From the NCBI RefSeq assembly GCF_028641065.1, contig NW_026575257.1, positions 1-58,301 on the forward strand: 58,301 nucleotides of DNA, read 5' to 3'. This DNA is from Leucoraja erinacea. Taxonomy: Eukaryota. A program made the position numbers and the translations under genes. The notes under the pieces are model-generated. The model worked only from the letters and a program-made list of their open reading frames with translations. It did no database searches and was not told where the DNA came from. Below, piece by piece: positions 2,661-37,058 of this stretch (position 1 is its first letter; each line of letters opens with the position of its first letter).

Positions 2661-3031
2661 TACGGTATTATTAAAGGTCCAGGCAAATCACCGGGTGGAA
2701 CAGGATATAATTCCTCAAAACATGGAGAGACCTGTAATTTTACAGATTGAACGAATTTACTACCCCATTCTTGGAACAATTGGGGTACCTGCTAAGCCAT
2801 TTAAAACCGGGTAAAACTCGTTATTGCGAGCAAGTTTCATGCACATGTCTATTGAATGGATGTGTTGCTTTTGATGACGTAATTGTCGAATTTCAAATGA
2901 ATTCACATCTGTTTTCCCGTTGTGTTCAATTGATCTAATTCAGCTGATTGTGTGAGGTGGCAAAATAGAAATAGACACATGTCTGGATTAATATGTGAAA
3001 AATTAATGTGAATGGTTTGTTTGTCGACAAG

Positions 3032-3452
3032 ACCATATAACCATATAACCATATAACAATTACAGCACGGAAACAGGCCATCTCGACCCTTCTAGTCCGT
3101 GCCGAACACATAATCTCCCCTAGTCCCATATACCTGCGCTCAGACCATAACCCTCCATTCCCTTCCCATCCATATAACTATCCAATTTATTTTTAAATGA
3201 TAAAAACGAACCTGCCTCCACCACCTTCACTGGAAGCTCATTCCACACAGCTACCACTCTCTGAGTAAAAAGTTCCCCCTCATGTCACCCCTAAACTTCA
3301 GTCCCTTAATTCTCATGTCATGTCCCCTTGTTTGAATCTTCCCTACTCTCAGTGGGGAAAGCTTTTCCACGTCAACTCTGTCTATCCCTCTCATCATTTT
3401 AAAAACCTCTATCAAGTCCCCCCTTAACCTTCTGCGCTCCAAAGAATAAAGA
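3032..3452 (-). mobile_element. CR1 LINE 3' end, (TTATATGG)n-tailed subfamily
   Basis: ORF 3251..3442 ERRRLRGDLIEVFKMMRG; CCATATAA repeats at 3033-3056. Confidence 0.85.
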
Positions 3453-3469
3453 CAACCAATCCTGAAATA

Positions 3470-3728
3470 TTTAAGAAGGAACTGCAGGTGCTGGAAAATC
3501 GAAGGTAGACAAAAGTGCTGGAGAAACTCAGCGGGTGCAGCAGCATCTATGGAGCGAAGGTAATAGGCAACATTTCGGGCCGAAACCCTTCTTCAGATCA
3601 GTCTCACTCTGATACAAAAATATATCTGCCGGGTCTAGGGGACAAGGCAGGTGTGTGTCCTCACAAACAAAATGCCGCAGTAACTCAGCGAGGCAGGCAG
3701 CATCTCTGGAGAGATCGAATGGGTGACA
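3470..3728 (-). mobile_element. Penelope-derived terminal-repeat fragments
   Basis: Near-identical to the terminal repeat at 21575-21700. Contains CTGAAGAAGGGTTTCGGCCCGAAATGTT on the minus strand. Confidence 0.7.
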
Positions 3729-3729
3729 G

Positions 3730-5212
3730 AGAAATATTTAAAATAGGTGCAGGAGACTGTTTGGCCCTTCGGGCCTGCATCTACATTTAGTGTGATCATG
3801 GCTGATCATCCACAATCCGTAACCCGTGCTTACCTTCTCCCCATGTCCCTTGATTCCGCTACGCCCAAGTGCTCTATCTAAATTTTAAATTCATCTAGTG
3901 AATTGGTCTCCACTGCTTTCTGTGGCAGAGAATTCGCCAAATTCACAACTCTCAGGGTGATTTTTTTTCTCATCTCAGTTTTAAATGACCTCCCCTTTAT
4001 TCTGAGACTGTGGCCCCTGGTTCTGGACTCCTCCAACATACAACACGATACAATACAATACAATACAAGTTATTTGTTGTCATTTAAACCTCATTGAGGT
4101 TCAAATGAAATGTTATTTCTGCAGTCATATACACAATTAAAAAGAACCAAGACAACACAATTTACACAAATATCCTCACTGTGATGGAAGGCAAAGTCTT
4201 ATCTCTCCCTTGCACTCCCCATTCTCCTCCCGATGTCAGAGTCAAACCCCCGGCGGGCGATGGTAATTGTCCCGCGGCCATTAAAACCGCGCCGGGTGAT
4301 GTAAGGCCCCGCTCCAGGTGCTCTTCAACCCCGGAACTCGGACGGGAGAAGCCGCCGTTGCGGAAGTCCCGAAAAGCGGTCTCCCAGCAGGGACCCGCGG
4401 GCTCCCGGCATTACTGTCGACCAGACCTGCGGTAAGCATTCGAATCTTCGGGGTCAGGTCGCAGCCGAGCGCCACCACAGCTCCACCCGCTCCGAACTCG
4501 GCCAGCTCCACGATGGTGAATAGGTCCGCAGCTGCGTGACAGGAGCCTTAGGTCGTTCCGTTTGGAGGCCGCTCCACGCAGCCCCAACGACAACGGAGAC
4601 CCGACAGAGAAAAGGTCGGGTTCTCCGCGCAGGGAAAAGATTTTAAAAGTCTCCCCACCCCCCGTCCCCACACACATACCCAGTTAAAAAATAAAAACTA
4701 CATTCAGACGAGACAAAAAATAATAAAAAAGACAGACAGACTGCAGAGGCCGCTGCGACGTGAGTCGCGCCTGGGAACATTTTCCTGCATCTAACCTGTA
4801 AAGTTCTGTTATAATAGTATACGTTTGTACAAGATATCCCCTCATCGTTCTAAACTCCAGTGAATACAAGCCTAGTCTTTTCAATCTTTCCTCATATGAC
4901 AGTCCCGCCATCCCAGGGATGGATCTCGTGAACCTACGCTGCACTGCCTCAATCACAATGTCCTCAAATTAGGAGACCAAAACTGTACACAATACTCCAG
5001 ATGTGGTCTCACCAGAGCCCTATACAACTGCAGAAGAACCTCTTTACTCCTATACTGAAATCCACTTGTTATGAAGGCCAACATTCCATTAGCTTTCTTC
5101 ACTGCCTGCTGTACCCGCACGCTAACTTTCAGTGGCCGGTGTACAAGGACACCCAGGTCTCGCTGCCCCTCCCCCTTACCTAACCTAACCCGATTGAGAT
5201 AATAATCTGCCC
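3730..5212 (-). mobile_element. CR1 LINE 3' fragment split by an insertion at ~4040-4771
   Basis: ORFs 3878..4063 (ESRTRGHSLRIKG) and 4684..4956 (AVQRRFTRSIPGMAGLSYEERL) are colinear parts of CR1 ORF2. Confidence 0.8.
4040..4771 (-). mobile_element. Non-autonomous GC-rich retroelement with a simple-repeat (TATTG)n 3' tail
   Basis: Interrupts a CR1 and has a CAATA-repeat tail. Shares blocks (CCTCACTGTGATGGAAGGCAAA, GGGYGATGGTAA, GACAGAC..ACTGCAG) with 17271-18066. Confidence 0.6.
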
Positions 5213-7439
5213 CCGATGGGTAGGCGGGGAATGGAGGGATCTGGATCTCGACCTGGCAGAGGAGATTTTCTGAACGTATACCGATATTGAGGAGCGAACG
5301 ACCTGCTGGTGCACTGTACTATTTGTAATCAATATTATAAATATAAATAACTCTCTGGAGACAACAGTGCAAATGATCTACTCGATGCGGACGAACAGTC
5401 AATGGTAAGTAATAATAAGAAGGATGATACTTGGTTTGGCAACATTGCCCGGAACCCGCAACCGTACAGATGCCTGTCTGCATTTTTACTCGTTATTTCT
5501 GCCGACGTGAGTCGAGTCGAGCTCTAGACATCACTATGGCGTTAGTCGTTTAAAGTGGAGTGTTGCATTGGCCATGACAACATCCCAAATAATGAATCAT
5601 GAGTTCCTACTTAAAACAGTCACCAAAACTTTAGGCAATTCCTTCCTGTCAGCGGTATGTACGGGAATCAATAACCGGGAATACTTACAATATTTTAAAC
5701 AATCAAAATAAACGATTAAAAAAAACAAGGATAAATTAATGTATTGCTCCCAGTTATATCCAAATGAAACATTATTTCAAATCTTTAGAATGAAGAAACA
5801 ATACAACAAAATTATTTACTTTAAAGACACCTCCAATGAATGGAGTCGCGTTATATAAGCCAGTCATGCTTCGTATAAAGCACAATTCAGCGAGACCAGC
5901 CTCCCGCTCAGTACTTGGTTCATGGTTCTACAGCAGAGACGAATCTAATCTACAGCTGTATTCAGACTTTAGCGCTGCAAAGACCAGACCCACTAATCGG
6001 GGTTGACCGAACGGTCACAATTGCAACCGATTTTTCCACTAAAACTATCAGATAAATATTGTGCAATAAATTCTAATCCAGATAATGAAACATCACTATT
6101 CGGCGTCTCATATCGAATATCATTATTAATATACATTTGTTGTATGCAGAAAATTTGTTGGCCATCGTGATCTTGTCCCGAGGAAAGTGCGGTCTCTCCA
6201 AATGCATCACTCGTTACCTGCTGGGAATGGCTGTCGCTGACTTGATGGTCATTACATTTGTTGTCATTTGATATCAGATTATTGACGCATATTTTCCACA
6301 GTCCTTCTTCAATCTCACCATTATTTGTAGATTTATTTTAACCATGATTTTTATTTCCATGGACTGTTCAGTGTGGCTCACTGTGGCTTTTACTTTCGAC
6401 CGATTTATTGCGATTTGCCATCAAATGCTACGAACAAAATATTGCACTGAAAAGAATGTGACTATCGTGACAGCGGTGGTGTTGTGTACAAGTATTGTGG
6501 AAAACATTCCGTACTATTTTATATACGAACCACGGGAGGTAGTTAATGGCGTTGAGTGGTCGTGCTATGTAAAATCAAACTTCTACACATTACCCATTTG
6601 GGCCGCATTTCTGTGGCTGGAAACGATCTTGACTCCGTTTGCTCCCTATGTGTTGATCTTGCTGCTTAATTCATCTGACCATCAGACACATTATACTGGC
6701 GAACCGAGTGAGGAGCGGACTACGTGGAAACAACAGTATTGTGAAGCACACTGACCCAGAGATAGAGAACCGCAGAAAATCCATCGTGTTGCTGCTCGCC
6801 ATATCTGGCAGCTTTATTCTCTTGTGGATGGTTAATTTGGTATGTTACATATACGTGCAATTTACTGACACGCATTTTTTGGATGCAAGTTACAATGACC
6901 CCTTCACCATTGCTGAGTTATCCGGGTACATGCTGAAGTCTTTGAGTTCTTGCACGAACACCTTTATTTATGCTGTATCCCAGAGAAAATTCAGAGAGGA
7001 ACTGAAACACGTGATCAAATGGCCCATGGTTCTTGTTGCCACTGTAACCAACTGCATTAAATGATCCACCGAATATTTTGTCCAAATTACAAATGTAATT
7101 GCCTTGAACACTATTGAACAAAATTGAAAGGGTGTGCATGCACGCAAGGAGATCTATAAATGAGCCAAATGTCTCGGGAAGTTGTTTAAACCGTCAAACA
7201 ACATACACCGTAATGGGACTACTTATGCGATTATTTATGTTATTTTTTTGCAGAGATGTTATGGATGGGAGATGTATGTGATGGGGAAGGTCAGTGCATA
7301 GGGTGATGAAACCAAACTCGAGTCAGTGAAGTAGGTCCCAATTGCCCGCAGCATATCGGAAATACCAAGCGTATATAAATGTTGTTTTAGTACTGCGTCC
7401 CGACCTCATATCAAGATATAACTTTCAACTAAAAACAGT

Positions 7440-8215
7440 CCCCTTCTTGCCGTGCCGAACACATATCGCCCATCCCATATCCCTGTAACCATATTCCCTG
7501 CCCTTCCCATCCATATAGCTGTCCAAGCGTATATTAAAAAACGAACCTGTGTTTTAGTGGACCTGCGTCAACGACCATCATCTGGCTGAAGTCATTGTTA
7601 CGTAGTTCCGCCGTCCCTCACTTCCGTGTCCAACAATGGGTGAAAACGTTGCCCTTCAGGCTCCTATTATTCATCTTCTCAACTTAAACTATGAACGTCT
7701 GTTTCTTGATTCTCCTCTTAGTAAAATACTCAGTTCATTTCATTCACTCTATCGATTTCACTCATTATTTTATACACCTCTATAAGATAAACCCTCAGCC
7801 TTCTGTGATCTAAGGAACAAAATCCCAACCTCCACTGTGTAGGTCCAGTTGATTTTCCAGCTGAATAAAACCGTTTCTGTAACAGGTTGACCAAAAACAA
7901 CTCTAAACGCGGCCTCAACAACGTGGCGTCCAACGGCACCATATCGGCCCAAGTGTTTACCTCAACACACTGACTGATGAAGGTCAAATGTACCAAACAC
8001 CCCATTCACCACAGGAAAATCATATCTGGTCAGAAACATGCGTAGGAAACGTTCATAGGGACATGGGCCAAACTTAGGCAGGTGGGATTAGCGTCGAGGG
8101 ACAAGGGCAAGTTGGGCCAAGGTCCTTTCTTCGTGTTTTCTGGCTCCATGACTCTAAATGTGACAAGCCCAACATGCCAACATGGTCAGCATGGATGAGA
8201 TGGGCCGAAGGGCGT
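7440..8215. mobile_element. Degenerate CR1 fragments
   Basis: ORF 7730..8005 (-) contains LRPRLE...RRLRVYLIEVYKIM; CR1-type 3'UTR remnants on both strands. Confidence 0.55.
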
Positions 8216-8521
8216 ACTTCTGTGTGACGAAACTCTATGTTTATGATTTTACGAATCTCTCTGGTCAGGCGGGATGTTCTTACATCCAAGCCTCAGCGAG
8301 GATGTATAACCGCGAGATCCTTATTCAGGCTCTCCCTCAAAACAGCGCAGCTCTGCACGGCTGCTCGTCTCACAACATCTGCCGACAATGCCGAGAACCT
8401 AGCGATCTTGTGGCCAATGAGGGTTACGGTACGGGATACTGAGTTGGATGATCTCATATTTCATGAAGGGAATGGCCTACCCTGCACCTAATTTCTATGT
8501 TTCTATGTTTCCCGAAGGTTC

Positions 8522-10170
8522 ATATAACCATATAACCATATAACCATATAACAATTACAGCATGGACACAGGCCATCTCGACCCTTCTAGTCCGTGCCGA
8601 ACACATATTCTCCCCTAGTCCCATATACCTGCGCTCAGACCATAACCTTCCATTCCCTTCCCGCCCATATAACTATCCAATTTATTTTTAAATGATAAAA
8701 ACGAACCTGCCTCCACCACCTTCACTGGAAGCTCATTCCACACAGCCACCACTCTCTGAGTAAAGAAGTTCCCCCTCATGTTACCCCTAAACTTCAGTCC
8801 CTTAATTCTCATGTCATGTCCCCTTGTTTGAATCTTCCCTACTCTCAGTGGTAAAAGCTTTTCCACGTCAACTCTGTCTATCCCTCTCATCATTTTAAAA
8901 ACCTCTATCAAGTCCCCCCTTAACCTTCTGCGCTCCAAAGAATAAATCCCTAACTTGTTCAACCTTTCTCTGTAACTTAGTTGCTGAAACCCAGGCAACA
9001 TTATAGTAAATCTCCTCTGTACTCTCTCTCTATTTTGTTGACATTCTTCCTATAAAGGCGACCAAAATTGTACACCATACTCCAGAATTGGCCTCACCAA
9101 TGCCTTGTACAATTTTAACATTACATCTCAACTTCTATACTCAATGCTCTCATTTATAAAGGCCAGCACACCAAAAGCTTTCTTTACCACCCTACCATGA
9201 GATTCCACTTTCAGGGAACTGTGCACAGTTATTCCCAGATCCCTTTGTTCACCTACATTCTTCAATTCCCTGCCATTTACCATGTACGTCCTATTTTGAT
9301 TTGTCCTGCCAAGATGTAGCACCTCACACTTATCAGCATTAAACTCCATCTGCCATCTTTCAGCCCACTCTTCCAACTGGCATAAATCTCTCTGTAGACT
9401 TTGAAACTCTACTTCATTACCCACAACCCCACCTATCTTATTATCATCTGCATACTTACTAATCCAATTTACCACACCATCATCCAGGTCATTGATGTAC
9501 ATGACAAACAACAGTGGACCCAACACAGATCCCTGTGTCACCCCACTCGTCACTGGCCTCCAACCTGACAAACAACCATCCACCATTACTCTCTGGCATC
9601 TCCCATTCAGCCACTGTTAAATCCATCTTGCTACTCCACCATTAATACCCAACCATTGAAACTTCTTAACCAACCTTCCATGAGGAACCTCGTCAAAGGC
9701 CTTACTGAAGTCCATATACACAACATCCACTGCTGTACCCTCATCAATTTCCCGAGTAACATCTTCAAAAAATTCAAGAAGATTAGTCAAACATGACCTT
9801 CCAGGCACAAATTCATGTTGACTGTTCCTAATCAGGCCCTGCTTATCCAGATGCTTATATATATTATTTCTAAGTATTCTTGCCATTAATTTGCCCACCA
9901 CGGACGTCAAACTAACAGGTCTATAATTGCTAGGTTTACTCTTAGACCCCTTTTTAAACAATGGAACAACATGCGCAGTACGCCAATCCCCCGGCACTAT
10001 TCCCGTTTCTAATGACCCTTGAAATATTTCTGCCATAGCCCCTGCTATTTCTACACTAACTTCCCTCAATGTCCTAGGGAATATCCTGTCCGGACCTGGA
10101 GACTTATCCACTTTTATATTTCTCAAAAGTGTCAGTATTTCCTCTTCTTTGAATCTCATAGTTTCCATCA
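8522..10170 (-). mobile_element. 5'-truncated CR1 LINE (RT domain to 3' tail)
   Basis: ORFs 9617..10168, 9128..9586 and 8615..9001 give KSPGPD, NYRPVSLTSVVGK, DFSKAFD, QGSVLGP, YADD. CCATATAA tail at 8522-8551. Confidence 0.92.
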
Positions 10171-10283
10171 GTCTATATGGCCTTGTGACAATTCATTGGG
10201 TAAAACAGTTTGAATTGGTCCAAATATTGTTGCAAATCACGAACACCTATCTATGTCACTTTCTATATTTTCTGACTGGCTTT

Positions 10284-13430: not shown

Positions 13431-14322
13431 GAAGTGGTCATAAATAACTTCCATTTGTTGAGCCCATTTTTTTGAACCTAAGAGAGGTAAAACCACATGA
13501 AGCATTTTGTTCGCATATGCGCGTACCCCTGCCTCGTTTACTCATATAATCAACACTCCTCTCCCTCTGAACGTTTTCGATATTAGACTTATCCCTGCTA
13601 TTGCACTTGCAGAACGATATCACATTTGCTGTTCCCAAGATATCCTGTACATTGACAGCGCCAAGAATAACATGAACACGGCTATCAGGTTCCCAATGAT
13701 CGTCTCTCCTCATCTGATCCGGGGGATCTATCCAAGTTTCAACCTGCGATGATATTTGACGACCCCATAAATAATGTCACATGTTCTAGTATTTCACTGC
13801 CAGCTATGCTATTTCTGGAATAGTTCTCTTCCCCGCAGTGAGTTCAGGTGGAGGGTATTTCTACGAGGTTATTTCCATAATCAACCACGTCAAGGATCGC
13901 CACATTCTGGCTAGTTATGCTCTTGTTGTAATAAATGTATTAATAGGAATTTGGGATTTCACGTGACCGTCTCATTAAATGATCCGTTTGTGATCCATTG
14001 TTGTTTCACTTCCGGTGTATGTTATGATTTCCTGTACTTGCAGAAATAGACAAATGGGTCCAGTGTAGATGGGGACACGTTTGGCAAGGAAGTGGCTGAA
14101 GGTCTCTATCCTCTGCTGCACGATGCTATGAATCAACGTTTCTATAATTGTAATCTCCAGCCCCCCCCCCCCCCCCCCCCCCCCCAGGCAGCGAACTGCA
14201 TACACACAGCACCCCCTTGTTAGAATCGAACCCAAACATCTGGCTCTATGAGCCAACTGGTCTTGCACCGGGCCGCCAGGTTTCACCTTGACCTTGGTTC
14301 GAGTGAAATTGGTTATTTGTGA

Positions 14323-16882
14323 TCACACTGCCAAGGGAGTTTACAGTGGTGTTCCTCACTGCTGTTTACATACCACCACAATCTAACGCTAAGCTAGCAC
14401 TGGCTAGTCTGCATGATGCTATCCACCAGCTGAAAAACAACCACCCAGACGGCGTGTTTTTAATAGCAGGATACTTCAATCACGCCAAGCTGAAGACTGT
14501 AATGCCAACGTTTCACCAGTGTATTGATTTTCCGACCAGAGGAAACAATATCTTGGACCAGGTCTACTGCAACATTGCCAAGGGCTACAAAGCGTCCCCC
14601 TGCCCCCATCTTGGCCGATCCGATCACATCAGTCTGTACTTAACACCTGCATACAGACCCCTCATTGCAAGGACAAAGCCAACAGTTCGCACCATCATGG
14701 TCTGGCCAGAAGGAGGCATGGACAGGCTACAGAACTGCTTTGAGTACACTGATTGGGACATCTTTAAACAGGCTGCCACTCACAACAACCACACAGACCT
14801 CAGCACCTACTCCTCATCAGTATTAGATTACATCACCTTCTGTATGAACAGTGTCACCACACAGAGGACAATACTGACACTCCCCAACCATAAGCCATGA
14901 ATGAATGGCGCTGTAACTGGTCTGCTGAAGGCCCGGAATGCAGCTTTCCACTCAGGTGATGCAGAGGCCTACAGAACAGCAAGGTCCAGTTTGAGGAAGG
15001 GCATCAGGGAAGCAAAGCACCGCTACACGAAGCGTATCGAGGAGCATTTTAACAGCTCAGACTATCGACGCGTGAGGCAGGGCATCACAACCATCACCGG
15101 CTACAACAGCTCCACACACGCACAAAGCTCATCCCTCCCTGACGACCTGAACTGTTTTGCCAGGTTTGATTGTGCCGACAGCAGTGACAACATACGGGCA
15201 CAGCAGGGACCCTCACCACCGGTGCTGACTCTGAGCCCCCACGACAGGGACCCTCACCACCGGTGCTGACTCTGAGCCCCCACGACGTGAGACGGACCCT
15301 GACACTGAGCCCCCACGACGTGAGACGGACCCTGCAGCACATCAACCCCAACAAGGCCACCGGACCTGACGGAGTACCAGGGCGGGTTCTGAAGCACTGC
15401 GCAGGGGAGCTGACTGCGGTGCTCACGGACCTGTTTAACACCTCCCTGCTGCAGGCCTCCGTCCCCACATGCCTCAAGACAGCCACAATCATCCCTGTGC
15501 CAAAACAATCAGCCATCAGGTCCCTCAACGACTATAGGCCGATGGCGCTGACACCGGTGGTGATGATGTGCTTCGAACGTCTAGTACTGGGACACTTGAA
15601 TAACAGCATCCCCTCCCCCCCTCCTGAGACCACCACCAATTTCCCTATAGGGCAAACAGGTCGACGGAGGACGCAATGTCACTGGCCCTCCACTTCATCC
15701 TGACACATCTTGACCAGCGGGACAGTTATGTGCGGATGCTATTCATAGATTATAGCTCCGCCTTTAACACCATCCCCTCCATAAACTAGTCACCAAGCTG
15801 GACCATCTGGGCCTCAACACACACCTGAGCAGCTGGGTCCTGGACTTTCTCACCGGCCGACCACAGACTGTGCGCATGGGGAGGCAGGTCTCCTCCAGCA
15901 TCACCCTGAACATCGGTGCACCACAGGGCTGTGTGTTGAGCCCCTTCCTCTTCTCCCTCTACACTCTCGACTGCAAACCCACCCACGAGGCCAACACCAT
16001 ATTAAAGTTTGCAGATGACACCATCGTGGTAGGCAGGATCACGAGTAACAACGAGGCCGCCTACAGGACAGAGGTAGAAAACCTGGTGAGCTGGAGCCGT
16101 GAGAACAACCTGATCCTCAACGCAGCAAAAACAAAGGAGATGATCCTGGACTTCAGGAGGAGACCGAAGACCTTCGCCCATCAGCCCATCACCATTAACG
16201 GCGAGACAGTGGAGGCTGTGCAGAACATCAGGTACCCGGCGTCAACATCAGCCACGACCTGACCTGTACCGTCAACATCACGGCGACGGCCAAGAAAGGA
16301 CTTCAAAGGCTTCACTTCCTGAGGTGCTTGAAGAGGGCACGTCTCCCACAACAGCTGCTGGTGAGCTTCTACAGGTCAGCCATCGAGTCAGTTCTCACAT
16401 ACTGCATCACAGTATGGTACTCTGGCTGCACCGCAGAGAACAGGAAAGCTCTCCAACGCGTCATTAAGACTGCTGAGAGGATCACTGGCACCCAGCTCCC
16501 CAGACTGGAGGACATCTACCTGACCCGCTGCATCCGGAGGGTCAAGGGCATCATTAGAGACAGCACACACCCTGGACACTGCCTCTTCACCCCCCTGCCC
16601 TCAGGAAGACGATACAGGACACTGAGCGCCCGCACAACAAGACTAAAAAACAGCTTCTACCATAGAGCTGTGACACTACTGAACTCTATCCCCCTCCCAC
16701 ACTGAATCCCCCCTCTCTCTCACACACCCGCCCATACTCCTATATGGTTATAGTCTATTTTTTTTAATAGTTCTTTTTTAAACGTATTTTTATACTCATA
16801 TTCCTGTGCAGCTGGAGGACTGCTCCAACAAAATGTCGTTGTCTTGTACAATGACAATAAAGATTATTGTTATTATTATTAC
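14323..16882 (+). mobile_element. Rex1/Babar-type LINE, 5'-truncated and disrupted
   Basis: APE C-terminal part (VYIPP...TRGNNILD...SDH), RT ([31 protein letters not shown]) and C-terminus (FYRSAIESVLTY...LPSGRRYR), with an (ATT)n tail. Absent from the paralogous site at ~31450. Confidence 0.88.
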
Positions 16883-16914
16883 TGTGTGTCAGGAAATTAC
16901 TGTGTCTGTGAAAC

Positions 16915-18640: not shown

Positions 18641-20089
18641 ACATTGAATGGGCGTTCGTCGGTTAAATTGACTGAAGCGGTTACCCTGATGTTTGGCATT
18701 GATTGGGAGGTCGGAACGGCCGCTCGCGCATTAAGATGCAATAACACAATGTAGAAGAAGACTTACTTTCGAAAGGAATTTTCTGATTCACCGGGACATT
18801 ACAGACACTTTAATGATTTGAACAACAAAACGAATGGGCTCTTAATCACATATATAAATTCATCCATGATTTTTTTCTGGGACACCCCATAAATAAAGGT
18901 GCTGGTGCAAGCATGCAGGGCCCTCAGCTTGTATCCGGACAGTTCTGCAACGGTAAATGGGTCGTTGTAATCTGACCCTAAAAGATGAACGTCGAGGAAG
19001 TTTACACTCGTGAAACACACGAAGGTCACCATCCACAGTAGTATGAAGTTACCGGATATGGCCAACAATAGAATGATGGACTTCCGTCGGTTCTCCACCT
19101 CTTGATCAGCGCCGCTCCCGGTTTTGTTGCCCTGTCGGAGACCGCTCCGCACTCTATTAGCGTGTATAATGTGTTTGATTGTCAGGGCGTTGAGTAGAAT
19201 AATCAGTAACATTGGTATGACTGGGGGTTACAATGGTTTCCATGACCGAAAATGCTGCCCCTATCGGTGTGGTGTAGACATCTGATGCTATCCAACAGTA
19301 CCAAGCCACGTTGTCAATTATGTGCAGAGGTGCGAGGAAAATATACACTGGAACATTTTGAATGATACTTAATATACACGTTACGGTTATCACCACAGCT
19401 GCAGTTTTCTCAGTGCAATATTTAGCTCGTAAACTCTGATTACAAATAGTGATAAATCGATCGAAGGTGAAAGTCACCGTTAGCCAGACAGAGCAATCAA
19501 TGGAAATACAAATAAACAAAATACGCAGCTTACAGATGTGAGATAAGTTGAGGAAATAATACGGATAATAGGCACCTGACATCTCTGAAATAATTACTTC
19601 GAAGATCAGAATCATTAGATTAGCCACGGCCATGGATAGCAGGTAGCGGGTGATACATTTGGAGAGACCACACTTTCCCCGGGAGAGAATGACGATTGCC
19701 AACAGGTTAGCTGTAGAAAAGAGGAAATTAAAACCAATGACCATCGTTCAATGTTCCAGGAGCATGTTAGTTTGACACATCATCGTTCGAAAGTGAGTGG
19801 ATTATATGATATTGTATCTCGCATCGAGGTGATCGGCAGGGGAATGGCCACCCGGACATTCCTCGGTATCAATCACAGACTGATTTCAGGATGCGCATGT
19901 GCATCCAAATAACGCCTATGTTAACCTGACCGGAATTACTTCATAAGGCGTACAATTTTTACCACCGTTTACCCTCAAAGGAAATTGACAGCAGTAACGC
20001 TGCTTCCTGTTTAGCTCCAGCGTCGCAGAATCGATACTAATTACTGTTATTGTTTGTGTGGAATTTGCACCTTTTGCCCGTGTTCACGT

Positions 20090-21500: not shown

Positions 21501-21570
21501 GAATAAATGTGCCTGTCTACATGACACTGGATTTACCGGCCATAGATTAAAGCGATTGTTTATTTTAGAT

Positions 21571-22717
21571 GTTCAAGAAGGAACTGCAGATGCTGGAAGA
21601 TTGAAGGTACACAAAATGCTGGAGAAACTCAGCGGGTGCAGCAGCATCTATGGAGCGAAGGAAATAGGCGACGTTTCCGGCCGAAACCCTTCTTCAGACT
21701 GATGGGCGGTGGGAGGGAGAAGGAAGGGAAAATGGAAGAGGAGGAGCCCGAGGGCTGGGGGATGGGAGGAGACAGCTCGAGTGTTAAGGAAGGGGAGAAG
21801 ACAGCAAGGGCTAGCAAAATTGGGAGAATGCAATGTTCATGCCATCCGGACGTAAGAAACCCAGGCGGAATATGAGGTGCTGTTCCTCCAATTTCCGGTG
21901 TTGCTCACTCTGGCAATGGAGGAGACACAGGGCAGAGAGGTCGGATTGGGAATGGGAGGGACAGTTGAAGTGCTGAGCCACCGGGAGATCAGGTAGGTTA
22001 TTGCGCACTGAGCGGAGGTGTTCGGCGAAACGATCGCCCAACCGCCGCTTAGTCTCCCCGATGTAGATCAGCTGACATCTAGAGCAGCGGATGCAGTAGA
22101 TGAGGTTGGAGGAGATGCAGGTGAACCTTTGTCGCACCTGGAACGACTACTTGGGTCCTTGAATGGAGTCGAGGGGGGGGGGGGGGGGGGGGGGGGGTGA
22201 AGGGACAGGTGTTGCATTTCTTGCGGTTGCAACGGAAAGTGCCCGGGGAGGGTGTGGTACGGGAGGGAAGGGAAGAATTGACAAGGGAGTTGCGGAGGGA
22301 GCGGTCTTTGCGGAAGGCAGACATGGGGGGAGATGGGAAGATGTGGCGAGTGGTGGGGTCACGTTGGAGGTGGCGGAAATGGCGGAGGATTATGTGTTGT
22401 ATTTGCCGGCTGGTGGCGTGAAAGGTGAGGACGAGGGGGACTCTGCCCTTGTTCCGAGTGCGGGGATGGGGAGAGAGAGCAGTGTTGCGGGGTCTGGATG
22501 AGACCGTGGTGCGAGCCTCATCTATGGTGCCGGAGGGGAATCCCCGTTCCCTGAAGAACGAGGACATTTCCGATGCCCTGGTATGGAATGTCTCATCTTG
22601 GGAACAGATGCGGCGTAGGCGGAGGAATTGGGAGTAGGTGATGGAGTCTTTACAGGGGGCAGGGTGGGAAGACGTGTAGTCCAGATAGCCATGTGAGTCA
22701 GTTGGTTTGTAGTGTAC
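21571..22717 (-). mobile_element. Penelope-like element, 5'-truncated: RT thumb, GIY-YIG endonuclease and terminal repeat with hammerhead core
   Basis: YKPTDSHGYLDYTSSHP...SQFLRLRRICS (22079..22792 frame) and NLIYCIRCSRCQLIYIGETKRRLGDRFAEH (21811..22137); frameshift in a poly-G run. Absent from the paralogous introns. Confidence 0.92.
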
Positions 22718-23151
22718 TAGCACGTCTATTTTTAACAGTGAGCCAGAGACGGCGAAATATAAAACGCTTACCAGGAACACCAATGGTGACAAGGATAGGG
22801 TAGAACACGTGTTCTACCTGGTTGACGACCCGTACACGACCAGGGATAATTCACGTTTCCTACCCATGGTATGACAGGTCGCTTGCTTTTAAAGATAACA
22901 TGCTTTTAACGACTCGTTAAGTTGCTTTTAACATATTCTCCAGATAAACCCTATGATGCCTAATCAAGGCAAATGAATTGAGATTAGTGTCAGTCAAATA
23001 AAGTTAGCAACATCACGTCTGCTACTTCTAATAATTATGGAATTGCTTAATACCTGCCAGCAGAGTTGGTTAATCTCTAAAATGGGGAATATATGATAGA
23101 ATATAGAGATCATTGTAAGTAATGATTGGTATTCTACACACTTCTATTTCT

Positions 23152-23159: not shown

Positions 23160-23202
23160 TCTCAGTTCCCTGCAGCAAAGTAACGTGTGTTGCCGATAAT
23201 CA

Positions 23203-24350
23203 CCAGCACCAAGCCAAGTTGTCAATTGTGTATAGCGGTACGAGGGAAATATACACTGGAATGTACACGTTAATGTTATCACCAGAATCCGCAGTTTTCT
23301 CAGTGCAATATTTTGGTCGTAAAATCTAATTACAAATAGTGATAAATCGATCGAAGGTGAAATACACCGTTAGCCAGACAGAGCAGTCAATGAAAATGAA
23401 ATTAAACAAAATACGAAGGTTACAAATATGAGATAAGTTGAGGAACGTGCACGGAAAATATGCAGCTGATATTTCAGAGAGAATTACCGTGATATCGACA
23501 GTGTATCGGCCCCAGTCGGAAACTTTGGGGAAAATGCGAAGGCATGTGAAAAGGAAAAGCCGCCGGTGAATCCAATTGCAGTTCGATACGACGCAAGCTA
23601 GATGGACCGAACCTGCCGCCTTCTATATCGTATTCATCTAATTCGCTATCAGTCCGCTTGGATTTGGCGATGAAGAATGACTACAATCCTGCTTCTGTGA
23701 CCATCTCCAATGGAGTTAAACGCATCAGCACCAGCTACATATTGGCATCACACAACATCTACGGGCACATGTTAATTACTGGGCGACCGACAGAACCGTT
23801 AAATACAAGGCGCATCAGCAGATGTGCCGTGGCAGGGGATCGTCTTTCTCTCCGTGGGAGGGAAATCGATAGATTCATTGCTCATGTCTAATAACATGAT
23901 GATAGCCAGTTCCCATCACAGGACATATAACACTTGTAGAACATGGAACATTGAACGCCAGCGGAGACCAACCCTGTCTGTGTGAATCTTACACGTTCTA
24001 CATGTGGCCGCGTCAGTTTCCTCCAGGTGGTACCGATTCTTCCATCATCCGAAAAACGCGTGGATTTGTAGGTAAAAACGCTTCCGTAAAAATTGTTCCT
24101 CGTACGCAAGGAGTGAATGAGAAACTGGGATACCATCTAACTGTATGGCACTGGACCTACCGACCACAGAAGCGATTGGGTATTTTAGATTTTCGGTGTC
24201 AATAATTGGATCAGATAAGCATTAAGTAATAGCTCATCTATGTTTAACAGTAAAATCTAGACGGTGAAATATCGGCAGAGAATTATAAAGGGCTTATCAG
24301 GAGCACCAATGATGACAAGAATGGGGTAGAAAACGTTTTCTAGCTGGATT
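23203..24350 (-). pseudogene. GPR139-like pseudogene, copy 3, heavily deleted (partial exon 1 ~24350-24298; internal exon 2 fragment ~23488-23203)
   Basis: The fragment translates VILSEISAAYFPCTFLNLSHICNLRILFNFIFIDCSVWLTVYFTFDRFITICN*. The exon 1 remnant reads LENVFYPILVIIGAP with the donor mutated to G|ATAAG. Confidence 0.82.
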
Positions 24351-24944: not shown

Positions 24945-24987
24945 TCTAATTTCCCTGCAGAAAAGTAACGTTGAATTATCTAATTAT

Positions 24988-28680: not shown

Positions 28681-28684
28681 GGCT

Positions 28685-29222: not shown

Positions 29223-30747
29223 AAACATAGAAACATAGAAACATAGAAAATGGGTGCAGGATTAGGCCATTCGGCCCTTCGAGCCTGCGCCGCCATTCAA
29301 TATGATCATGGCTGATCATCCAACTCAGTATCCCGTACCTGCCTTCTCTCCATACCCCCTGACCCCTTTAGCCACAAGGGTTACATCTAACTCCCTCTTA
29401 AATATAGCCAATGAACTGGCCTCAACTACCTTCTGTGACAGAGAATTCCAGAGATTCACCACTCTCTGTGTAAAAAATGATTTTCTCATCTCGGTCCTAA
29501 AAGACTTCCCTCTTATCCTTAAACTGTGACCCCCTAGTTCTGAACATCCCCAACATCGGGAATAATCTTCCTGCATCTAGCCGGTCGCACCCCCCTTAAG
29601 AATTTTGAAAATATCTATAAGATCCCCCCTCAATCATCTAAATTCTACCGTGTACAAGCCGAGTCTATCCAGGCTTACTTCATATGGAAGTCCTGCCATC
29701 CCAGGAATCAGTCTGGTGAATCTTCTCTGTACTCCCTCTATGGCAAGTATGTCTTTCCTCAGATTGGGAGACCAAAACTGTACGCAATACTCCAGGTGTG
29801 GTCTCATCAAGACCCTGTACGACTGCAGTAGAACCTCACTGCTCTTATACTCAAATCATTTTGCTATCAATGCTAACATACCATTTGTTTTCCTCACTGC
29901 CTGCAGCACCGGATGGCTACTTTCAATGACTGGTGTACCATGACACCCAGGTCTCGTTGCATCTACCCTTTTCCTAATTGACCACCATTCAGATAATAGT
30001 CTACTTTCCTGTGTTTTCCACCAAAGTGGATAACCTCACATGTATCCACATTATACTGCATCTGCCATGCATTTGCCCACTCACCCAACCTATCCAAGTC
30101 ACCTTGCAGCGTCCTAGCATCCTCCTCGCAGCTAACACTGCCCCCAGCTTCGTGTCGTCCGCAAACTTGGAGATGTTGCATTCAATTCCCTCATCCAGAT
30201 CACTAATATATATTGTAAATACCTGGGGTCCCAGCACTGAGCCTTGCGGTACCCCACTAGTCACTGCCTGCCATTCTGAAAAGGACACGTTTACTCCTAC
30301 TCTTTGCTTCCTGTCTGCCGGCCAGTTCTCTATCCACATCAATACTGAACACCCAATACCGTGTGCTTTAAGTTTGTATACAAATCTCTTATGTGGGACC
30401 TTGTCGAAAGCCTTCTGAAAGTCCAAATATAACCCATGCACTGGTTCTCCCTTATCCACTCTACTAGTTACATCCTTGAAAATTTCTATAAGATTCGTCA
30501 GACATGATTTACGTTTCATAAATCCATGCTGACTTTGGCCAATGATTTCACCACTTTCCAAATGTGCTGCTATCCCATATTTAATAAGTGACTAGCAGTT
30601 TCCCCACTACCGATGTTAGACTAACTGGTCTGTAATTCCCCGTTTTCTCTCTCGCTCCCTTTTTAAAAAGTGGGGTTACATTAGCTACCCTCCAGTCCTC
30701 AGGAACTACTACAGAATCTAAAGTGTTTTGAAAAATTATCACTAATG
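29220..30747 (-). mobile_element. 5'-truncated CR1 LINE, (TTTCTATG)n tail
   Basis: [52 protein letters not shown]. Confidence 0.9.
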
Positions 30748-31130
30748 CAGAAGTTGCGAGGTCATGTTGCAGTTGTATGTTCGTTGATGAGACCGCATTT
30801 AGAATAGTGTGTTCAGGTCTCGGCACCGCTATAGGAAAGATGTTGTCTAACTTGAAGGTGAAGGGAAAATATTTAATGGGAATGTGACAGGTAACCTTTT
30901 CACACAAAGTGTGTTGGGTGTTTGGAACAAACTGCGAGATGAGGTAGCTGAGGCTGGTTCTATTCCAGCATTTATGAACAAGTTAGTCAGATACATGGAT
31001 AGGCCAGGTTTGCAGGGACATGGATCAAGCGCAGGAAGGTGGAGGTATTGTAGCTGGGACATGTTGGCCGGTGTGGTAAAGTTGGAACGTAGGGCCTGTT
31101 TCCACACTGTTTCACTCTATGACTCTCTAC
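30748..31130 (+). mobile_element. Degenerate CR1 3' fragment
   Basis: GNLFTQSVLGVWNKL and the 3'UTR motif AGGGCCTGTTTCCACACTGT. Confidence 0.65.
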
Positions 31131-32287
31131 GATAAGCAGCGACGGACTATGTGGTGGTGGCCGGTGGCGGCGACATCTTGGTGGAACCGGCGGATGAGTG
31201 AGACTAGATCTATGTTATCCTACTGCGTCGCCCAATCCCTAAACACCAGGAACAATGTCCACACGTCAATATCCTACAAAACTCACACATCTATGGAATG
31301 TGAGGTAAAACCGGCATGCAGATAACATTCAGACGGCACTGCATGTTAGAATCAAACACGGGCATCTGGCGCCGTGAGCCAACAACTCTACCACCGCGCC
31401 ACCAAATGTCGCCTTGACCTTTCGTAAGAATAAAATTGGTTAATTGCGAGCATGCTGTATGTCAGGACGTTACTGTATCTGAGAAGGGTCCCGACCCCTA
31501 ACGTCACCTATTTATAGATATTTAAAAAATGCTGGATCAACCCAGCTGATCGGCAGCATCTCTTGCGAACACGAATAGGCGACTTTTCGGTTCCGAAACC
31601 TTGTTCAGTTTGATGAAGCTTTCCGTTCAGAAATGTCAACTATCTATGTTGTCGAGAGATCTTGCCTGACCTGGTGAATTTCTTCAACATCTTCGGTATA
31701 AAACATCTACCGTAGTTCCTTGTTATTACGTCAGCTATCTATCTTCCCCACATACGCTGCTTGACCCGCAGACGCAGCCCAGCATATTGTGCAATCTTTA
31801 CGTAAACAAACATCTGCAGGTACTTGGGTTAAATTACAATGAATTATCCGTCGCTCAATTACATGCAGATTCAATTCTAGCAAGATATATATCCTGATAA
31901 TTACTATTCTGTGTTACGTGTTGCAGTTGACAAACAATGCCATCATTCTGCAAAACTGCCTATTAATAATGTACCTGCAGGCTCCTCCTTGCGATCCTGC
32001 CGACTGATCCTGTGTGGTTTCCCATGTTCTCCCTGCCTCCGCGGGGATTTATCTCGTGGCCAGCTGATCCATTCCACGTCCTAACGGCTCAATTAGTTGA
32101 CTGAGTAAATTGCCTCAGTCATTTGAGTTCAATTCAAATGGATGTGTTGAAAGTGTACGAAGGAACAGTAGATACTGGTTTAAATGCAAGATAGACATAA
32201 AAAGCTGTAATAACTCAGCGGGACTTGCAGCATCTGTGGAGATAAGGAATGGGTGGCGTTTCGGGTTGAGACACTTCTTCATACAGG

Positions 32288-33306
32288 TAGCAATGTTATA
32301 ACATTTTGAGATTTAAAAAATCAAGTCTGCAATTTATCCCATCGGGTAAAGCATAACAATAAGTTTAATTTGACACCTAATTCACTTTAAAAGGTTATGG
32401 CCATTTTCATACTCGGAAATTAGCATATTGTTCCCTATTGATTTTCTATGGACATAACAAAAAAGCTGTGATCGTGGACAGTCAAAAGCCAATAACTTTC
32501 TTAAAAATTAAGAGAACTGAATGAAATTTTCAGTTATCATAGATTGAAGCATTCTGAAACAAATATGAAACAATCTTACTTGGATGACGTGAAATTAAAG
32601 CATATAATTAGTTAGTTACCCAATTGTAGCTAATTTCAAACTTCAATTACTAGATCTAAACATCTATCCATTTCTTAATAAATGATTAACATTTTTAAAT
32701 AGCCTAAGTGTCCAAATAATATTCAGATAATTCACAATAAAACATGATTTTAAATTAATTTACATTAATTTATAGGCCAAATGGAAGGAATTTAGTGTTC
32801 AATTGCTGTAAATTAAAGTCAATTTAAATCAGCGTTCTAGTGGGATCCTGTGAACGCGCTGGTTTAGAACGTTCACATTGCGGTGGATTTGTGCTCAAAT
32901 GCCCAGAAAAATACTGCGGGATATAATGGGCCCAAAATTAGCTACTCGCAACATTAAACTTTGTATAAAGGGATCTTAAGAAGCCTTTTTAAATGTAAAA
33001 ATAAACAGCCTACCTCCTGTTGTCCCCTGTATGACATCCGGCCGGTTGCAGGCGGTCACGGGTTTACAGGTTAAAATTTAAACTACTATAACAATTAGAT
33101 AAAGCCCTTAAAAGTAATAATAGCTAAAGCGACGGAATCTTCCAGCGATTTTTCGTTAATAATTAACCAGGCTGAACATCCTCGATTTGAACAGCCTAGG
33201 GAAAATCGCGTTTTAAACCCGCCCCCCTCTAAACGGCGCCAAAATCGCGCACACGGGCTGGGACAGATTTTCAGCGACGCTTCAGGTAGACTTTGCAACA
33301 TACCTA
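32288..33306. mobile_element. Non-autonomous DNA transposon (1019 bp) with imperfect TIRs and a 7-bp TSD ATACAGG
   Basis: ATACAGG at 32281-32287 and 33307-33313. Ends TAGCAATGTTATAAC versus the reverse complement of the right end TAGGTATGTTGCAAA (10/15 matches). Empty site in the paralog at ~18545. Confidence 0.72.
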
Positions 33307-33561
33307 ATACAGGGTCTCGACCCGAAACGTCACCCATTCCTTCTCTCCTTAGATGTTGCCTGCCCCGCTGGGTTAGTCCAGCTTTTTGTGTCTATCTTCG
33401 GATCCATTCAATGGGCGTGCGTAGGTGAATTGCTGAAGGGATTATCCTGATGTGGATGGTATTGAGTGGAAGGTACTAACGGCCGTTCGGACAGTAAGAT
33501 GCAATGACACAAGTTTAAAGTACACGTAATTTCGAAAGGAAATTTCAGATTTACCGTGCAA

Positions 33562-34472
33562 TTAAAGACACTTTATTGATTTGGAAATTAAAATGAATAT
33601 GCTCTTAAACACAGTTTTAAATTCCTCCCTGAATTTTGTCTGGGACACCCCATAAATAAATGTGTTGGTGCAAGCACCCAGAGCCCTCATCATGTACCCG
33701 GACAGTTCCGCAATGGTGAATGGGTCGTTGTAATCTGACCCTAAAAGATGAACGTCTAGGAAGTTTACACTCATGAAACACACGAAGGTCACCATCCACA
33801 GTAGTATGAAGTTACCGGATATGGCCAGCAATAGAATGATGGACTTCTTTCGATTCTCCACCTCCTGATCTGAACCGCTATCAGCCTTTTTATCCTGTCG
33901 GAGACCGTTCCTCACTCTATTAGCGTGTATAATGTGTTTGATTGTCAGGGCGTTGAGTAGAATAATCAGTAACATTGGTATAACTGGGGTTAGAATGGTT
34001 TCGAACACAGAAAGTGCAGCCCATATCGGTGTGGTGTAGACGTCTGATGATACCCAACAGTACCAAGCCACGTTGTCAATTATGTATAGAGGTACGAGGA
34101 AAATATATAGTGGAATATTTTGAATGATACTTAATATACACGTTACTGCTATCACCCAAGCTGCAGTTTTCTCAGTGCAATATTTAGCTCGTAAATTCTG
34201 ATTACAAATAGTGACAAATCGATCGAAGGTGAAAGTCACTGTTAGCCAGACAGAGCAATCAATGGAAATACAATTAAACAAAATACGCAGCCTACAAATG
34301 TGATATAGGTTGAGGAAGGAATGCGAAGAATTGTCAGCTGCAATTTCGGAGAGAATTACCTCGAAGATCAGAACCATTAGATCAGCTGCGGCCATGGATA
34401 CCAGGTAGCGCGTGATACATTTGGAGAGTCCACACTTTCCTCTGGAGAGAATGACGATTGCCAACAGGTTTG
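33562..34472 (-). CDS. GPR139-like class A GPCR, intact copy 4, exon 2 (end of TM1 to C-terminus)
   Basis: Uninterrupted frame after acceptor TTCTACAG|CA. Contains N1.50 (ANLL), D2.50 (AAADL), C3.25, DRF, ECL2 Cys, TM5 Pro and NTFIY. Phase-1 junction with exon 1 gives 981 nt, 326 aa. Confidence 0.92.
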
Positions 34473-34947
34473 CTGTAGAATAGACGCAATTAAATTGACC
34501 ATCTTGGATTGTTCAAGGGGCATGTTACTTTGACACTTCTTGTAACGAACGTGAGTGGATTATTTGATTCTATATCTCAGATCGAGATGTTCGGCACACA
34601 TGTCTACAGCGAGAGGAAAGGCAGTATCAATCGCAGAATGATTTCAGGATGCGCATGTGATTGCAAATGTTGCATTCAAATAACGCCTCTGTTTACCTTC
34701 ATCTCCGGCCCAATTTGCTTTACAAGACGTACAATTCTTACCACCATTTCCCCTTAAAGCAAATGGATAGCAATGGCTGCTTCCCGATAGCTCCAGCGTC
34801 CCAGGTTCGATACTGATTGCTGGAATTGTTTGTGTGGAGTTTGCACCTTCTCCATGTGTTTACGTTGGTTCAATGCCTTGCATTCCCTTCAATGCCGTGT
34901 CTTGCCTTTGAATTAAATACCATGCATTGCTATTGAATTCCATTTAG

Positions 34948-35562
34948 AATGCTGCTGGTGTCCTTCTACCGCTGCTCCATCGAGAGTGTGCTGGCGTACT
35001 GTATAACCACATGGTATGCAAGCTGCTCTGCAGCGGACAGGAGAGCCCTTCAAAGGGTCATCAACACCGCACAAAAAAATCACTGGCTGCCCACTTACCT
35101 CCCTGAAGGACAGCTTCATCTCTCGCTGCCTTGGCAGGGCAGCCAACATCCTGGAAACAACATGTTCCACCTGCTGCCCTCTGGCAGACGGTACAGGTCT
35201 TTCAAAACTCGCACAAACACTCAGAGACAGCTTCTACCCCATAGCCATACGTGAACTTAACAATGAAAAATAAGAATTAAGACTCACATTCAACTGAATG
35301 GTTCTAACTCACAAGCACCTTAAAACATCCTGAATGTACTTAACCATTTGCACTACTATATAACTGTATATAACTGTACAACACCGAATACCTCATAATG
35401 GCAAATTAGTGACAACAAATATTTGTAATTTTTTTATATGTATATAGTTTTACCTTTTCTTATATATTTAAAATTGGTCTTGTGAATCGCACCGTTGGAT
35501 TGACTTTTAAATTTCGTTGTACCATGTGCAATGACAATAAAGTGATTCATTCATTCATTCAT
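34948..35562 (+). mobile_element. Rex1/Babar LINE 3' fragment with (TTCA)n tail, in the intron of the intact GPCR
   Basis: LLVSFYRCSIESVLAYCIT...LLPSGRRYRS. Absent from the copy 2 intron. Confidence 0.85.
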
Positions 35563-36988
35563 TAATGCCTTGCTTTGCTTTCAATGCCTTGCCTTGCTTT
35601 CAAAGCCTTGCCTCGCCTCCCCTGATGTCAATGGATTGCATTCAATGCCTTGGTTTGCTTTGCCTTCAATGCATGCGATCAATGACTTGTCTTGCCTCTA
35701 ATGCATTGCCTTCGATGCCTTCCCGTGCGTTGGTCAAAGCCTTGCCAACAACGCCTGCCTTGCTTTCCATTCAATGCTTTACCGTACGGTGCTTTTGATC
35801 GATTGACTGATAGATACAGCATGATAACAGTTCCCCGGCACACCGACCCGCCGATCATTTATCACTCGTTGACACCAGTTCCATTTTCCCAACAATCGCA
35901 TCCACTCCCTGCACAGTGGAAGCAATGACAGAATCCAGTTTACCGACACGGGTTGTGTTAGAAAACTACAACTCTTGGATCTTTGGGATGCGGCGGAAAC
36001 TAGAGCTGACGGGTAAATCAACCTGGTCCCGAGGACAACGTACAAACTCCACCCGGGAAACGAGGTCAAGATCACTGCCGGTATCCGTCGCTGTGATTCA
36101 CAAACAAGAGCCCGGAGCTCCGGTGTCCTTCTACATGCGGATACTAATCCAAACACGTTGCCGGCACAGCATTGGCCTCTGGCAGAAAAGTTGGGGAAAT
36201 TTGGAAGATCATTTGATAAGCAAAATCAGCCATTGATTCCAATTGCAGTTGGATGCGACACAAACTTGATGGGCCGAACCTGCCGCCTTCTATATTGTAG
36301 GGGCTGAATTTACCTAATTCGCTGTAAGTTCACTTCTATTTGGCGATGGAGAATTACTACAGTCCTGGTTCCGTCAACACCGTCAATGGATTCAGGAACC
36401 TGTGGACCAGCTACATATTGATATCACACAACAACGGCGGGCACATGTTAATTAGTGGTCGACTGACAGAACCGGTGAATATGAGGTCATCAGCAGATGT
36501 GCCGTGGCAGGGGATCGTCTATATCTCCTTGGGATGAAAATCCATAGATTCATTGCTCATGTCTAATAACATGATGATAGCCATTTCCGATCACAGGACA
36601 TGGCACGCTCAGGGTCACTGAACATAGATCGCCAGCAGAGACCAACCCGGTCTATGTGAATCTTACACGTTCTGCATGTCCCCGTGTCAGTTTCCTCCAT
36701 GTGGTACCGATTCTTCTCTCATCCGAAATACGTGCGGGTTTGTAGGTGAACTCGGCGCCGTAAAAATGGCCCTTCGTGCGCAAGGAGTGAATGAGAAGCT
36801 TGGGATAACTTGAACTAATCTGCCTGTCTACACCGCATTGGAACTACCCGCCATAGGTGCGATTGTGTGTTTTACATTTTAGGTGTCAATAATTATGTCA
36901 GTTACTCAAGCAATAAATAATAGCACATCTATGTTTATCAGTAAAGTCTAGACGGCGATATATCGTCAGAAAAAGATCAAGGGCTTAC

Positions 36989-37058
36989 CAGGAACACCAA
37001 TAGTGACAAGGATAGGGTAGAACACGTTCTCGATCTGGTTGACGACCGGCCCGTTCAT
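36989..37058 (-). CDS. GPR139-like GPCR, intact copy 4, exon 1
   Basis: ATG at 37058 encodes MNGPVVNQIENVFYPILVTIGVP, then G|GTAAG. Same 70-nt size and phase as exon 1 of copy 1. Confidence 0.9.

Follow-up and report, generated by a model that had tools for sequence, protein, structure and literature searches.

What are the four related receptor loci on a short skate contig, and what might the family behind them sense? The contig (NW_026575257.1, G000:C76) comes from Leucoraja erinacea and was analysed over its whole length of 58,301 nucleotides (nt), referred to below as the window; it is one entire 58-kb contig of a 2.19-Gb genome with 1,769 contigs. An initial annotation had described the loci, here copies A to D, as a birth-and-death cluster of GPR139-like receptors and a candidate chemosensory repertoire of cartilaginous fishes. 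We find that they sample a very large family of class A G protein-coupled receptors (GPCRs), spread among sharks, rays and a chimaera, which falls on a branch of its own rather than with GPR139. Its size, turnover, surface variability and promoters suggest a chemosensory role, which is weighed below against the alternatives.

A receptor family of several hundred intact genes

With the intact copy D as reference, every candidate scored in this genome (130/130, out of 1,433 candidates) was 47-100% identical to D. A genome scan with a motif from transmembrane helix 3 (TM3) gave 788 matches against 1 for the reversed control, and a TM7 motif gave 649 against 9. Fetching the first 30 TM7 matches yielded 28 family members; exon 2 was complete and open in 18 of these. 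Across the 1.23 Mb of DNA fetched, made up of the window and of tiles picked around strong matches, we counted 102 loci. Of these, 70 are intact two-exon genes, 8 have an open exon 2 for which no usable exon 1 was called, 16 are broken copies and 8 are fragments. The two motifs detected 76/102 and 82/102 of these loci, which corresponds to about 800-1,050 loci genome-wide, a figure that may include haplotype duplicates among the unplaced small contigs. "Several hundred intact" is the safe statement of family size. Loci were intact in 30 of 33 cases in the tiles of contig C15, and the 70 intact proteins have a median identity of 50%.

Among public proteins, 1,998 of 3,527 candidates passed E 1e-5. 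Of the matches listed, 115/120 could be named, all from sharks and rays and covering at least 16 species; a chimaera member was also identified. Subfamilies are common to skates and sharks. The closest public proteins to D, among the matches listed, come from the skates Rhinoraja longicauda and L. erinacea (79-90%). Overall, these are the marks of a lineage-specific tandem family of large size, shaped by birth and death. The birth-and-death cluster first proposed from the window is borne out by the family scans, by the 70 intact genes among 102 sampled loci and by the broken and fragmentary copies, and the same is true of the proposed large repertoire of cartilaginous fishes. A family of few copies does not fit the motif matches, and the phylogeny revealed no one-to-one orthology across species. 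The decay of three copies in four, as seen in the window, is atypical, given 70/102 intact among the sampled loci.

The copies are unevenly placed. A dense array on contig C35 (G000:C35:12.04-12.07 Mb, L082-L085) holds nine intact, near-identical genes in 40 kb. Many copies are found at most a few hundred kb from the beginning of the large contigs C3, C9, C11, C14, C26, C28 and C31, and the C15 cluster is 1-2 Mb from a contig end; together these positions hint at subtelomeric spread.

One intact gene and three pseudogenes in the window

A tblastn search with the long open frame at 34512-33562 as query found four homologous loci in 2722-37058 (E 1e-30 to 0 against D). Copy A lies on the forward strand and copies B, C and D on the reverse strand:

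36989-37058, reverse strand: exon 1 of copy D, ATG to TM1, 70 nt, with a phase-1 GT donor
33562-34472, reverse strand: exon 2 of copy D, end of TM1 to stop; open frame; 7tm_1 at E 3e-20
2722-2791, forward strand: exon 1 of copy A, with donor CT in place of GT
6150-7064, forward strand: exon 2 of copy A, with an in-frame TGA at 6269 and a 1-nt insertion near 6673
22772-22837, reverse strand: exon 1 of copy B, with ATG changed to GTG and a 4-nt deletion
18799-19710, reverse strand: exon 2 of copy B, with a 1-nt insertion in a C run at 19227-19223
21570-22720, reverse strand: Penelope-like retroelement fragment (GIY-YIG end, GIY-YIG E 5e-5) inside the intron of copy B
24298-24346, reverse strand: exon-1 remnant of copy C, with ATG, TATA and O/E region deleted and donor AT, fused to upstream promoter DNA
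23195-23488, reverse strand: exon-2 fragment of copy C, 294 nt, from the end of TM2 to extracellular loop 2 (ECL2), with a stop and a deletion and no acceptor

Copy D is lesion-free and encodes 326 amino acids, with a phase-1 intron of 2.5 kb. Copies B and C derive from a D-like gene (DNA identity to D of 89% and 79%, respectively), and A is a pseudogene from another subfamily (69%). A and B carry three lesions apiece, and C survives as a two-piece remnant. We looked for these lesions in public runs. One contig of the independent run X4 bridged the B insertion without gaps (93 nt, 1 difference, flanks of 34 and 54 letters); for the lesions of copy A, no public-run contig satisfied a 31-letter bridging rule. 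The contigs used came from DNA or unrecorded runs and contained at most 59% of D's words, so that paralogues mix, and the B insertion gave the single usable bridge. None of the runs listed as containing D was an RNA run, which speaks neither for nor against its expression. Several independent lesions per copy, together with the X4 contig, argue against assembly error. The first description of one intact gene and three pseudogenes, in both orientations and unequally decayed, was thus confirmed. It had further described four two-exon paralogs sharing a phase-1 intron in TM1, which holds for A, B and D but not for C: reduced to exon remnants, C is no longer a two-exon gene, and the intron is therefore whole only in the other three. 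The unit of copy A is duplicated with its flanks at 93% on other contigs, several of these duplicates being broken. The window is a real feature, an ordinary but unusually decayed sliver of a very large receptor family.

The family lies on a separate branch from GPR139 and GPR142

The best PDB match of D is GPR139 (E 5.7e-6), followed by CCK1R (E 9.4e-6). A true skate GPR139 is present elsewhere, at G000:C20, as one locus in a short motif search (E 1.8e-159 to the human chain), and this gene, not D, fills the place of GPR139 in the genome; the two are 26% identical. With the skate GPR139 as query and 127 of 1,159 candidates scored, one GPR142-like gene (C23) was found at 55%, and the remaining ones had 32% identity or below. 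The nearest proteins from outside the cartilaginous fishes are orphan receptors of bony vertebrates, which databases name "probable GPR139".

Three trees, built from 58, 38 and 30 rows chosen by hand, agree on topology. The chondrichthyan family forms its own clade (bootstrap 83-94), sister to an amphibian and sturgeon orphan receptor (100/99) that has about one member per species (19 further amphibian clusters plus sturgeon). Three vertebrate GPR210-like lineages group together (97/95): two have a single skate gene each (G000:C24 and C1243), and the third comprises the family and the amphibian and sturgeon receptors. With two skate somatostatin receptors as root, an amphioxus protein falls outside these three lineages, and GPR139/142 fall outside all of them (97/92). 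An approximately unbiased (AU) test rejects the family and GPR139/142 as one clade (p 0.0016). In these trees the family is not a set of GPR139 copies; it is a lineage separate from GPR139/142. Hence the GPR139 expansion initially proposed does not stand, as GPR139 and the GPR142-like gene occur elsewhere as single matches. The label "GPR139-like" holds loosely, in that GPR139 is the best PDB match, but it is barely ahead of CCK1R and sits on another branch. A phase-1 intron just before N1.50 is common to the family, the skate GPR139 and the GPR142-like gene.

The sister orphan (P0231, P0405-P0424) is 66-74% identical across amphibians and 46% in sturgeon, and is apparently single-copy. Both single-copy GPR210-like skate genes (L016, G000:C24:9977257-9978201; L017, G000:C1243:19267-20151) are conserved, and relatives of the former reach reptiles and are sometimes fused into TMEM183A gene models in databases. 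As a lead only, Atlas look-alike clusters carry 7TM_GPCR_Srw in 17-74% of their members; nematode Srw is a chemoreceptor expansion derived from peptide receptors. GPR139/142 themselves are placed with the protostome MIP/sex-peptide/FMRFamide receptor superfamily in the phylogenetic account of PMC11004728. GPR210 was introduced by Rinne et al. (2019, PMC6504862) as an orphan with three subtypes (GPR210A/B and a third), present in fishes and coelacanth and close to GPR139/142. Our trees likewise show three orphan lineages near GPR139/142, and the wider group of the family is probably this GPR210, a match drawn from tree position. In the GPR210 set as Rinne et al. present it (PMC6504862), cartilaginous fishes are absent and no expansion appears, whereas the skate family is hugely expanded.

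Receptor fold, predicted pocket and selection

Copy D is a rhodopsin-like (class A) GPCR by its 7tm_1 match (73 bits against a cut-off of 30.5). Its structural model is a confident seven-transmembrane (7TM) bundle with a beta-hairpin ECL2 (pLDDT 90.6) and resembles peptide receptors at a TM-score of about 0.7; GPR139 came at rank 32 in the fold search, not separated from other peptide receptors. Residues were counted over 35 representatives of less than 80% mutual identity, with generic numbers taken from alignment. The DR(F) motif, N7.49 and Y7.53 are invariant, W6.48 is present in 34/35 and P5.50 in 33/35; P6.50 and P7.50 are absent. N1.50, D2.50, R3.50, P5.50 and Y7.53, the residues expected of class A, are found together with a 7TM fold.

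Activation of GPR139 by Trp and Phe is reported to need four residues (PMC5430874). At the corresponding positions F3x33, H5x43, W6x48 and N7x38, D has C, E, W and Y, and the family mostly has Y/F, D/E, W and Y/N. Since D keeps W6.48 alone of the four, the Trp/Phe sensing of mammalian GPR139, mentioned in the initial annotation, cannot be carried over. With GPR139/GPR142 the family does share the class A fold, the phase-1 intron before N1.50 and W6.48, and is often aromatic at 3.33 (25/35), with N at 7.39 in 13/35. It differs in having hundreds of copies against one, in its 25-32% identity and separate branch with an amphioxus receptor in between, and in the mostly D/E residue at H5x43, the loss of P6.50 and the conserved C3.25 and ECL2 cysteine.

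Acidic residues (D/E) occupy 5.42 in 30/35 and 3.37 in 27/35 representatives. In fish TAARs, Asp5.42 is described as an amine contact (PMC4695389), and by analogy the acidic pair suggests cationic ligands. Entropy was 1.93 over the 28 positions of the predicted pocket, compared with 1.56 elsewhere in the extracellular half and 0.83 in the cytoplasmic half of the helices. In 23 disjoint close pairs, the ratio of nonsynonymous to synonymous substitution rates (dN/dS) was 0.45 overall and 0.20 in the cytoplasmic-half helices, compared with 0.60 in the predicted pocket (95% interval 0.33-0.99), 0.77 in ECL2 and 0.81 in ECL3. Read from these ratios, the pattern is one of purifying selection on the presumed signalling surfaces and of relaxed or diversifying change on the putative ligand surfaces.

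A shared promoter module

The proximal promoters of copies D and A are:

37109-37201, reverse strand: proximal promoter of copy D, with forkhead-like TGTTTGTT (-143), homeodomain-like CAATTA (-115), O/E-like palindrome TCTCTGGAGA (-82) and TATA-like TTAAAAAG (-58)
2602-2656, forward strand: proximal promoter of copy A, with CAATTG (-120), O/E-like TCACCAGGGG (-88) and TATATA (-71)

The O/E (Olf/EBF)-like site is an exact match at -82 in D and a one-mismatch match in A and B. To survey the family, the 70 intact genes were reduced to 49 non-redundant ones and, after C15:44054458 was dropped for an ambiguous exon 1 call, to 48; we scored 100 nt of each (-160 to -60) for YCYCNNGRGR with one mismatch allowed. 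The site occurred in 35/48 promoters, against 8.7 (maximum 15) in upstream windows and 7.9 ± 1.9 in shuffles. It was found in 10/10 subfamily groups and is retained across subfamilies with less than 60% protein identity. Similarly, homeodomain-like CTAATTR occurred in 18/48 (background 0.8) and forkhead-like TGTTTRYT in 11/48 (background 0.9). An O/E-like site accompanied the TATA box in 23/38 TATA promoters compared with 252/2,500 other TATA-like sites, and its start lay 20-24 nt before TATA in 19/25 matches. By consensus strings, these proximal promoters carry putative O/E and homeodomain sites of the kind known from chemoreceptor genes: OR promoters have both, and O/E-like sites are reported in 39/39 V1R promoters examined (PMC3247230, PMC5608512).

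NF-kB, IRF, ETS and octamer strings were not clearly enriched in the same promoters (6, 4, 4 and 9 of 48, versus 6.2, 6.1, 5.6 and 5.1 upstream), and a POU2F3-type octamer was found in 0/48. An NF-kB-like reading of the element before TATA was considered and rejected for lack of enrichment. The two single-copy skate relatives (n = 2, one seemingly with a 5' intron) showed no TATA/O/E module at the same upstream place; so small a set does not serve as a control.

MHC class I-like neighbours

Two exons of a gene resembling major histocompatibility complex (MHC) class I lie at the window end, 20 kb from D:

about 57609-57346, reverse strand: MHC class I-like alpha3 exon, best PDB match 6lup (E 1e-18)
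about 57042-56907, reverse strand: MHC class I-like transmembrane exon; alpha1/alpha2 are expected beyond the contig end

Six further contigs have alpha3 exons 87-93% identical to this one, and a second lineage (about 40%) also lies beside family receptors. Of the 11 contigs bearing this exon, 9 also carry family copies; in the other two, none was seen in the 50 of 101 kb examined of C1256 or the 40 of 260 kb examined of C633. On G000:C1679 (L182-L187), another class I-like gene has beside it remains of a subfamily that diverges further: two broken copies of exon 2 and two additional pieces resembling exon 1. The linkage is a lead, for an immune role and for a V2R/H2-Mv-like pairing alike.

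A candidate chemosensory repertoire

The chances seem to us about even that sensory neurons, those of the olfactory organ most likely, use the family as a chemosensory repertoire that has escaped recognition, a reading drawn from sequence features. Like OR, TAAR, V1R/ORA, V2R/OlfC and T2R, it has tandem clusters, birth and death, a short N-terminus, a variable extracellular face and O/E and homeodomain-like promoter sites. Unlike them, it has a coding region split by an intron, and it shows no family-level homology to any of them: in Pfam, D matches 7tm_1 only, and a fragment of A matches 7tm_4 below cut-off (20.3 versus 27 bits). Judged by these matches, it is a member of no named chemoreceptor family. 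By analogy in size, turnover, surface variability and promoter grammar, it may nevertheless work as a chemoreceptor repertoire does. In this scheme, any one gene would be switched on by EBF and a LIM-homeodomain factor in some of the sensory neurons. The receptors would differ in the small water-borne molecule that they bind; amines, basic amino acids or short peptides are the most probable ligands, given the predominance of acidic residues at the positions predicted as 3.37 and 5.42. Through the conserved DRF and NxxxY motifs, the whole family would signal by a single G-protein pathway, plausibly that of microvillous neurons (Go/PLC/TRPC2), and tandem and segmental duplication would supply both new specificities and dead copies. 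More tentatively, and at rather less than even confidence, we propose a specific form of this reading. The family would be a further olfactory family derived from a GPR210-type orphan, at least ten times the size of all known cartilaginous olfactory families together, with OR/V1R-like EBF-homeodomain promoters and expression in subsets of olfactory neurons, possibly together with the neighbouring non-classical MHC class I.

Several points weigh against the chemosensory reading. The pocket dN/dS interval (0.33-0.99) lies below 1 and so does not demonstrate positive selection. Variability in the pocket exceeds that of the rest of the extracellular half only a little (p 0.03), and the pocket was defined by alignment and generic residue numbers rather than by the geometry of the model. 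Tile choice and possible haplotype duplicates may make the counts and the intact fraction too high. As to the promoters, O/E, homeodomain and forkhead sites were assigned by generic consensus strings and 14 motif variants were tried, the stretch from -160 to -60 was chosen after data inspection, and paralogous promoters are not independent. The V1R motifs CNTCTGG, GNNNTCTGGR and TCTGGR were not enriched (2, 3 and 8 of 48), and a strict adjacent Lhx2/Ebf-type composite was found in 6/49 at a loose and 1/49 at a tighter cut-off. Because EBF serves B cells and many neurons as well, the cell type cannot be read from the promoter. Family copies occur on 9/11 contigs bearing a class I-like alpha3 exon. 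Finally, the list of the top 50 catshark brain/olfactory genes in PMC11979771 contains no GPCR, V2Rs being absent too.

Unlikely, but deserving serious attention, is an immune repertoire, in which FPR-like receptors of leukocytes or lymphocytes for microbial or damage-derived peptides would be driven by EBF and forkhead factors in B-lineage or myeloid cells. Both kinds of factor act in B cells, and the class I-like exons near D, with family copies on most alpha3-bearing contigs of two class I lineages, point the same way. These contigs are, however, mutual duplicates of the two lineages rather than independent events, and most clusters (the C15, C35, C8 and C9 tiles) were not seen beside class I genes; mammalian ORs are MHC-linked too. 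The promoters also fit poorly, as homeodomain sites are enriched and NF-kB, IRF, ETS and octamer strings are not clearly so.

A chemosensory function outside the nose, in solitary chemosensory cells of skin or gill, taste buds, gut or MRGPR-like somatosensory neurons, would draw on the same size, diversity and selection data, but we regard it as distinctly unlikely. It is favoured by the report that catshark olfactory neurons are all Go/TRPC2 microvillous cells already expressing many V2Rs (PMC10116579), and MAS1 relatives are stated in PMC8455134 to be absent from cartilaginous fishes, which leaves that role open. The O/E and homeodomain grammar, on the other hand, is chiefly familiar from the genes of olfactory and vomeronasal receptors, and the POU2F3-type octamer is missing from all 48 promoters.

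Quite improbable is mere copy-number drift: segmental duplication would have multiplied a redundant receptor passively, in DNA rich in repeats and often at chromosome ends, and the copies would not act as a repertoire. Many matches do fall on small contigs or near contig ends, the copy A unit was duplicated with its flanks and several of the duplicates are broken, and pocket dN/dS is not above 1. Drift alone accords badly with purifying selection (0.45 overall, 0.20 cytoplasmic), with the high intactness of the C15 tiles, with subfamilies held in common by skates and sharks, and with a promoter motif kept across divergent subfamilies. That the family consists of amplified GPR139 orthologues sensing L-Trp and L-Phe as in mammals is extremely improbable: database names, the best PDB match and the shared intron position favour it, but the true GPR139 at G000:C20 is only 26% identical to D and orthology is already rejected by the AU test.

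Relation to known olfaction in cartilaginous fishes

Full-text literature searches, whose coverage lacked most subscription papers, returned no description of the expansion. Neither the catshark nor the whale shark genome paper refers to the family in its main text (PMC11979771, PMC8455134), whale shark supplements 1-12 of 24 hold no GPR139/GPR142 entry (PMC8455134), and a term search of the shark MHC paper PMC10751288 gave no mention of GPR, G protein or olfactory. Cartilaginous fishes are reported to have a mean of 43.8 complete genes in four olfactory families (PMC10869828). The contrast between their large olfactory organ and few receptors has so far been explained as sensitivity traded against discrimination, in the catshark study that also described the microvillous, V2R-expressing neurons (PMC10116579). 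With several hundred intact receptors filed under an automatic "GPR139" label, this mismatch becomes a question that can be tested with existing catshark and skate RNA data. An olfactory role, if true, would end the belief that a few dozen receptors are all that sharks and rays have for smelling; an immune or somatosensory one would still leave a very large unstudied receptor family. The apparently single-copy counterpart in Xenopus and axolotl offers a handle on the ancestral ligand.

Repeats in the window

Decayed fragments of long interspersed elements (LINEs) fill most of the window, at 8533-10192, 39277-43243, 43623-45165, 14307-16705 and 53457-55749; from their translations we take them to be of CR1/L2 and L1 type. 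A direct duplication of about 0.9 kb at 80% identity, with no obvious coding match, lies at 48003-49721.

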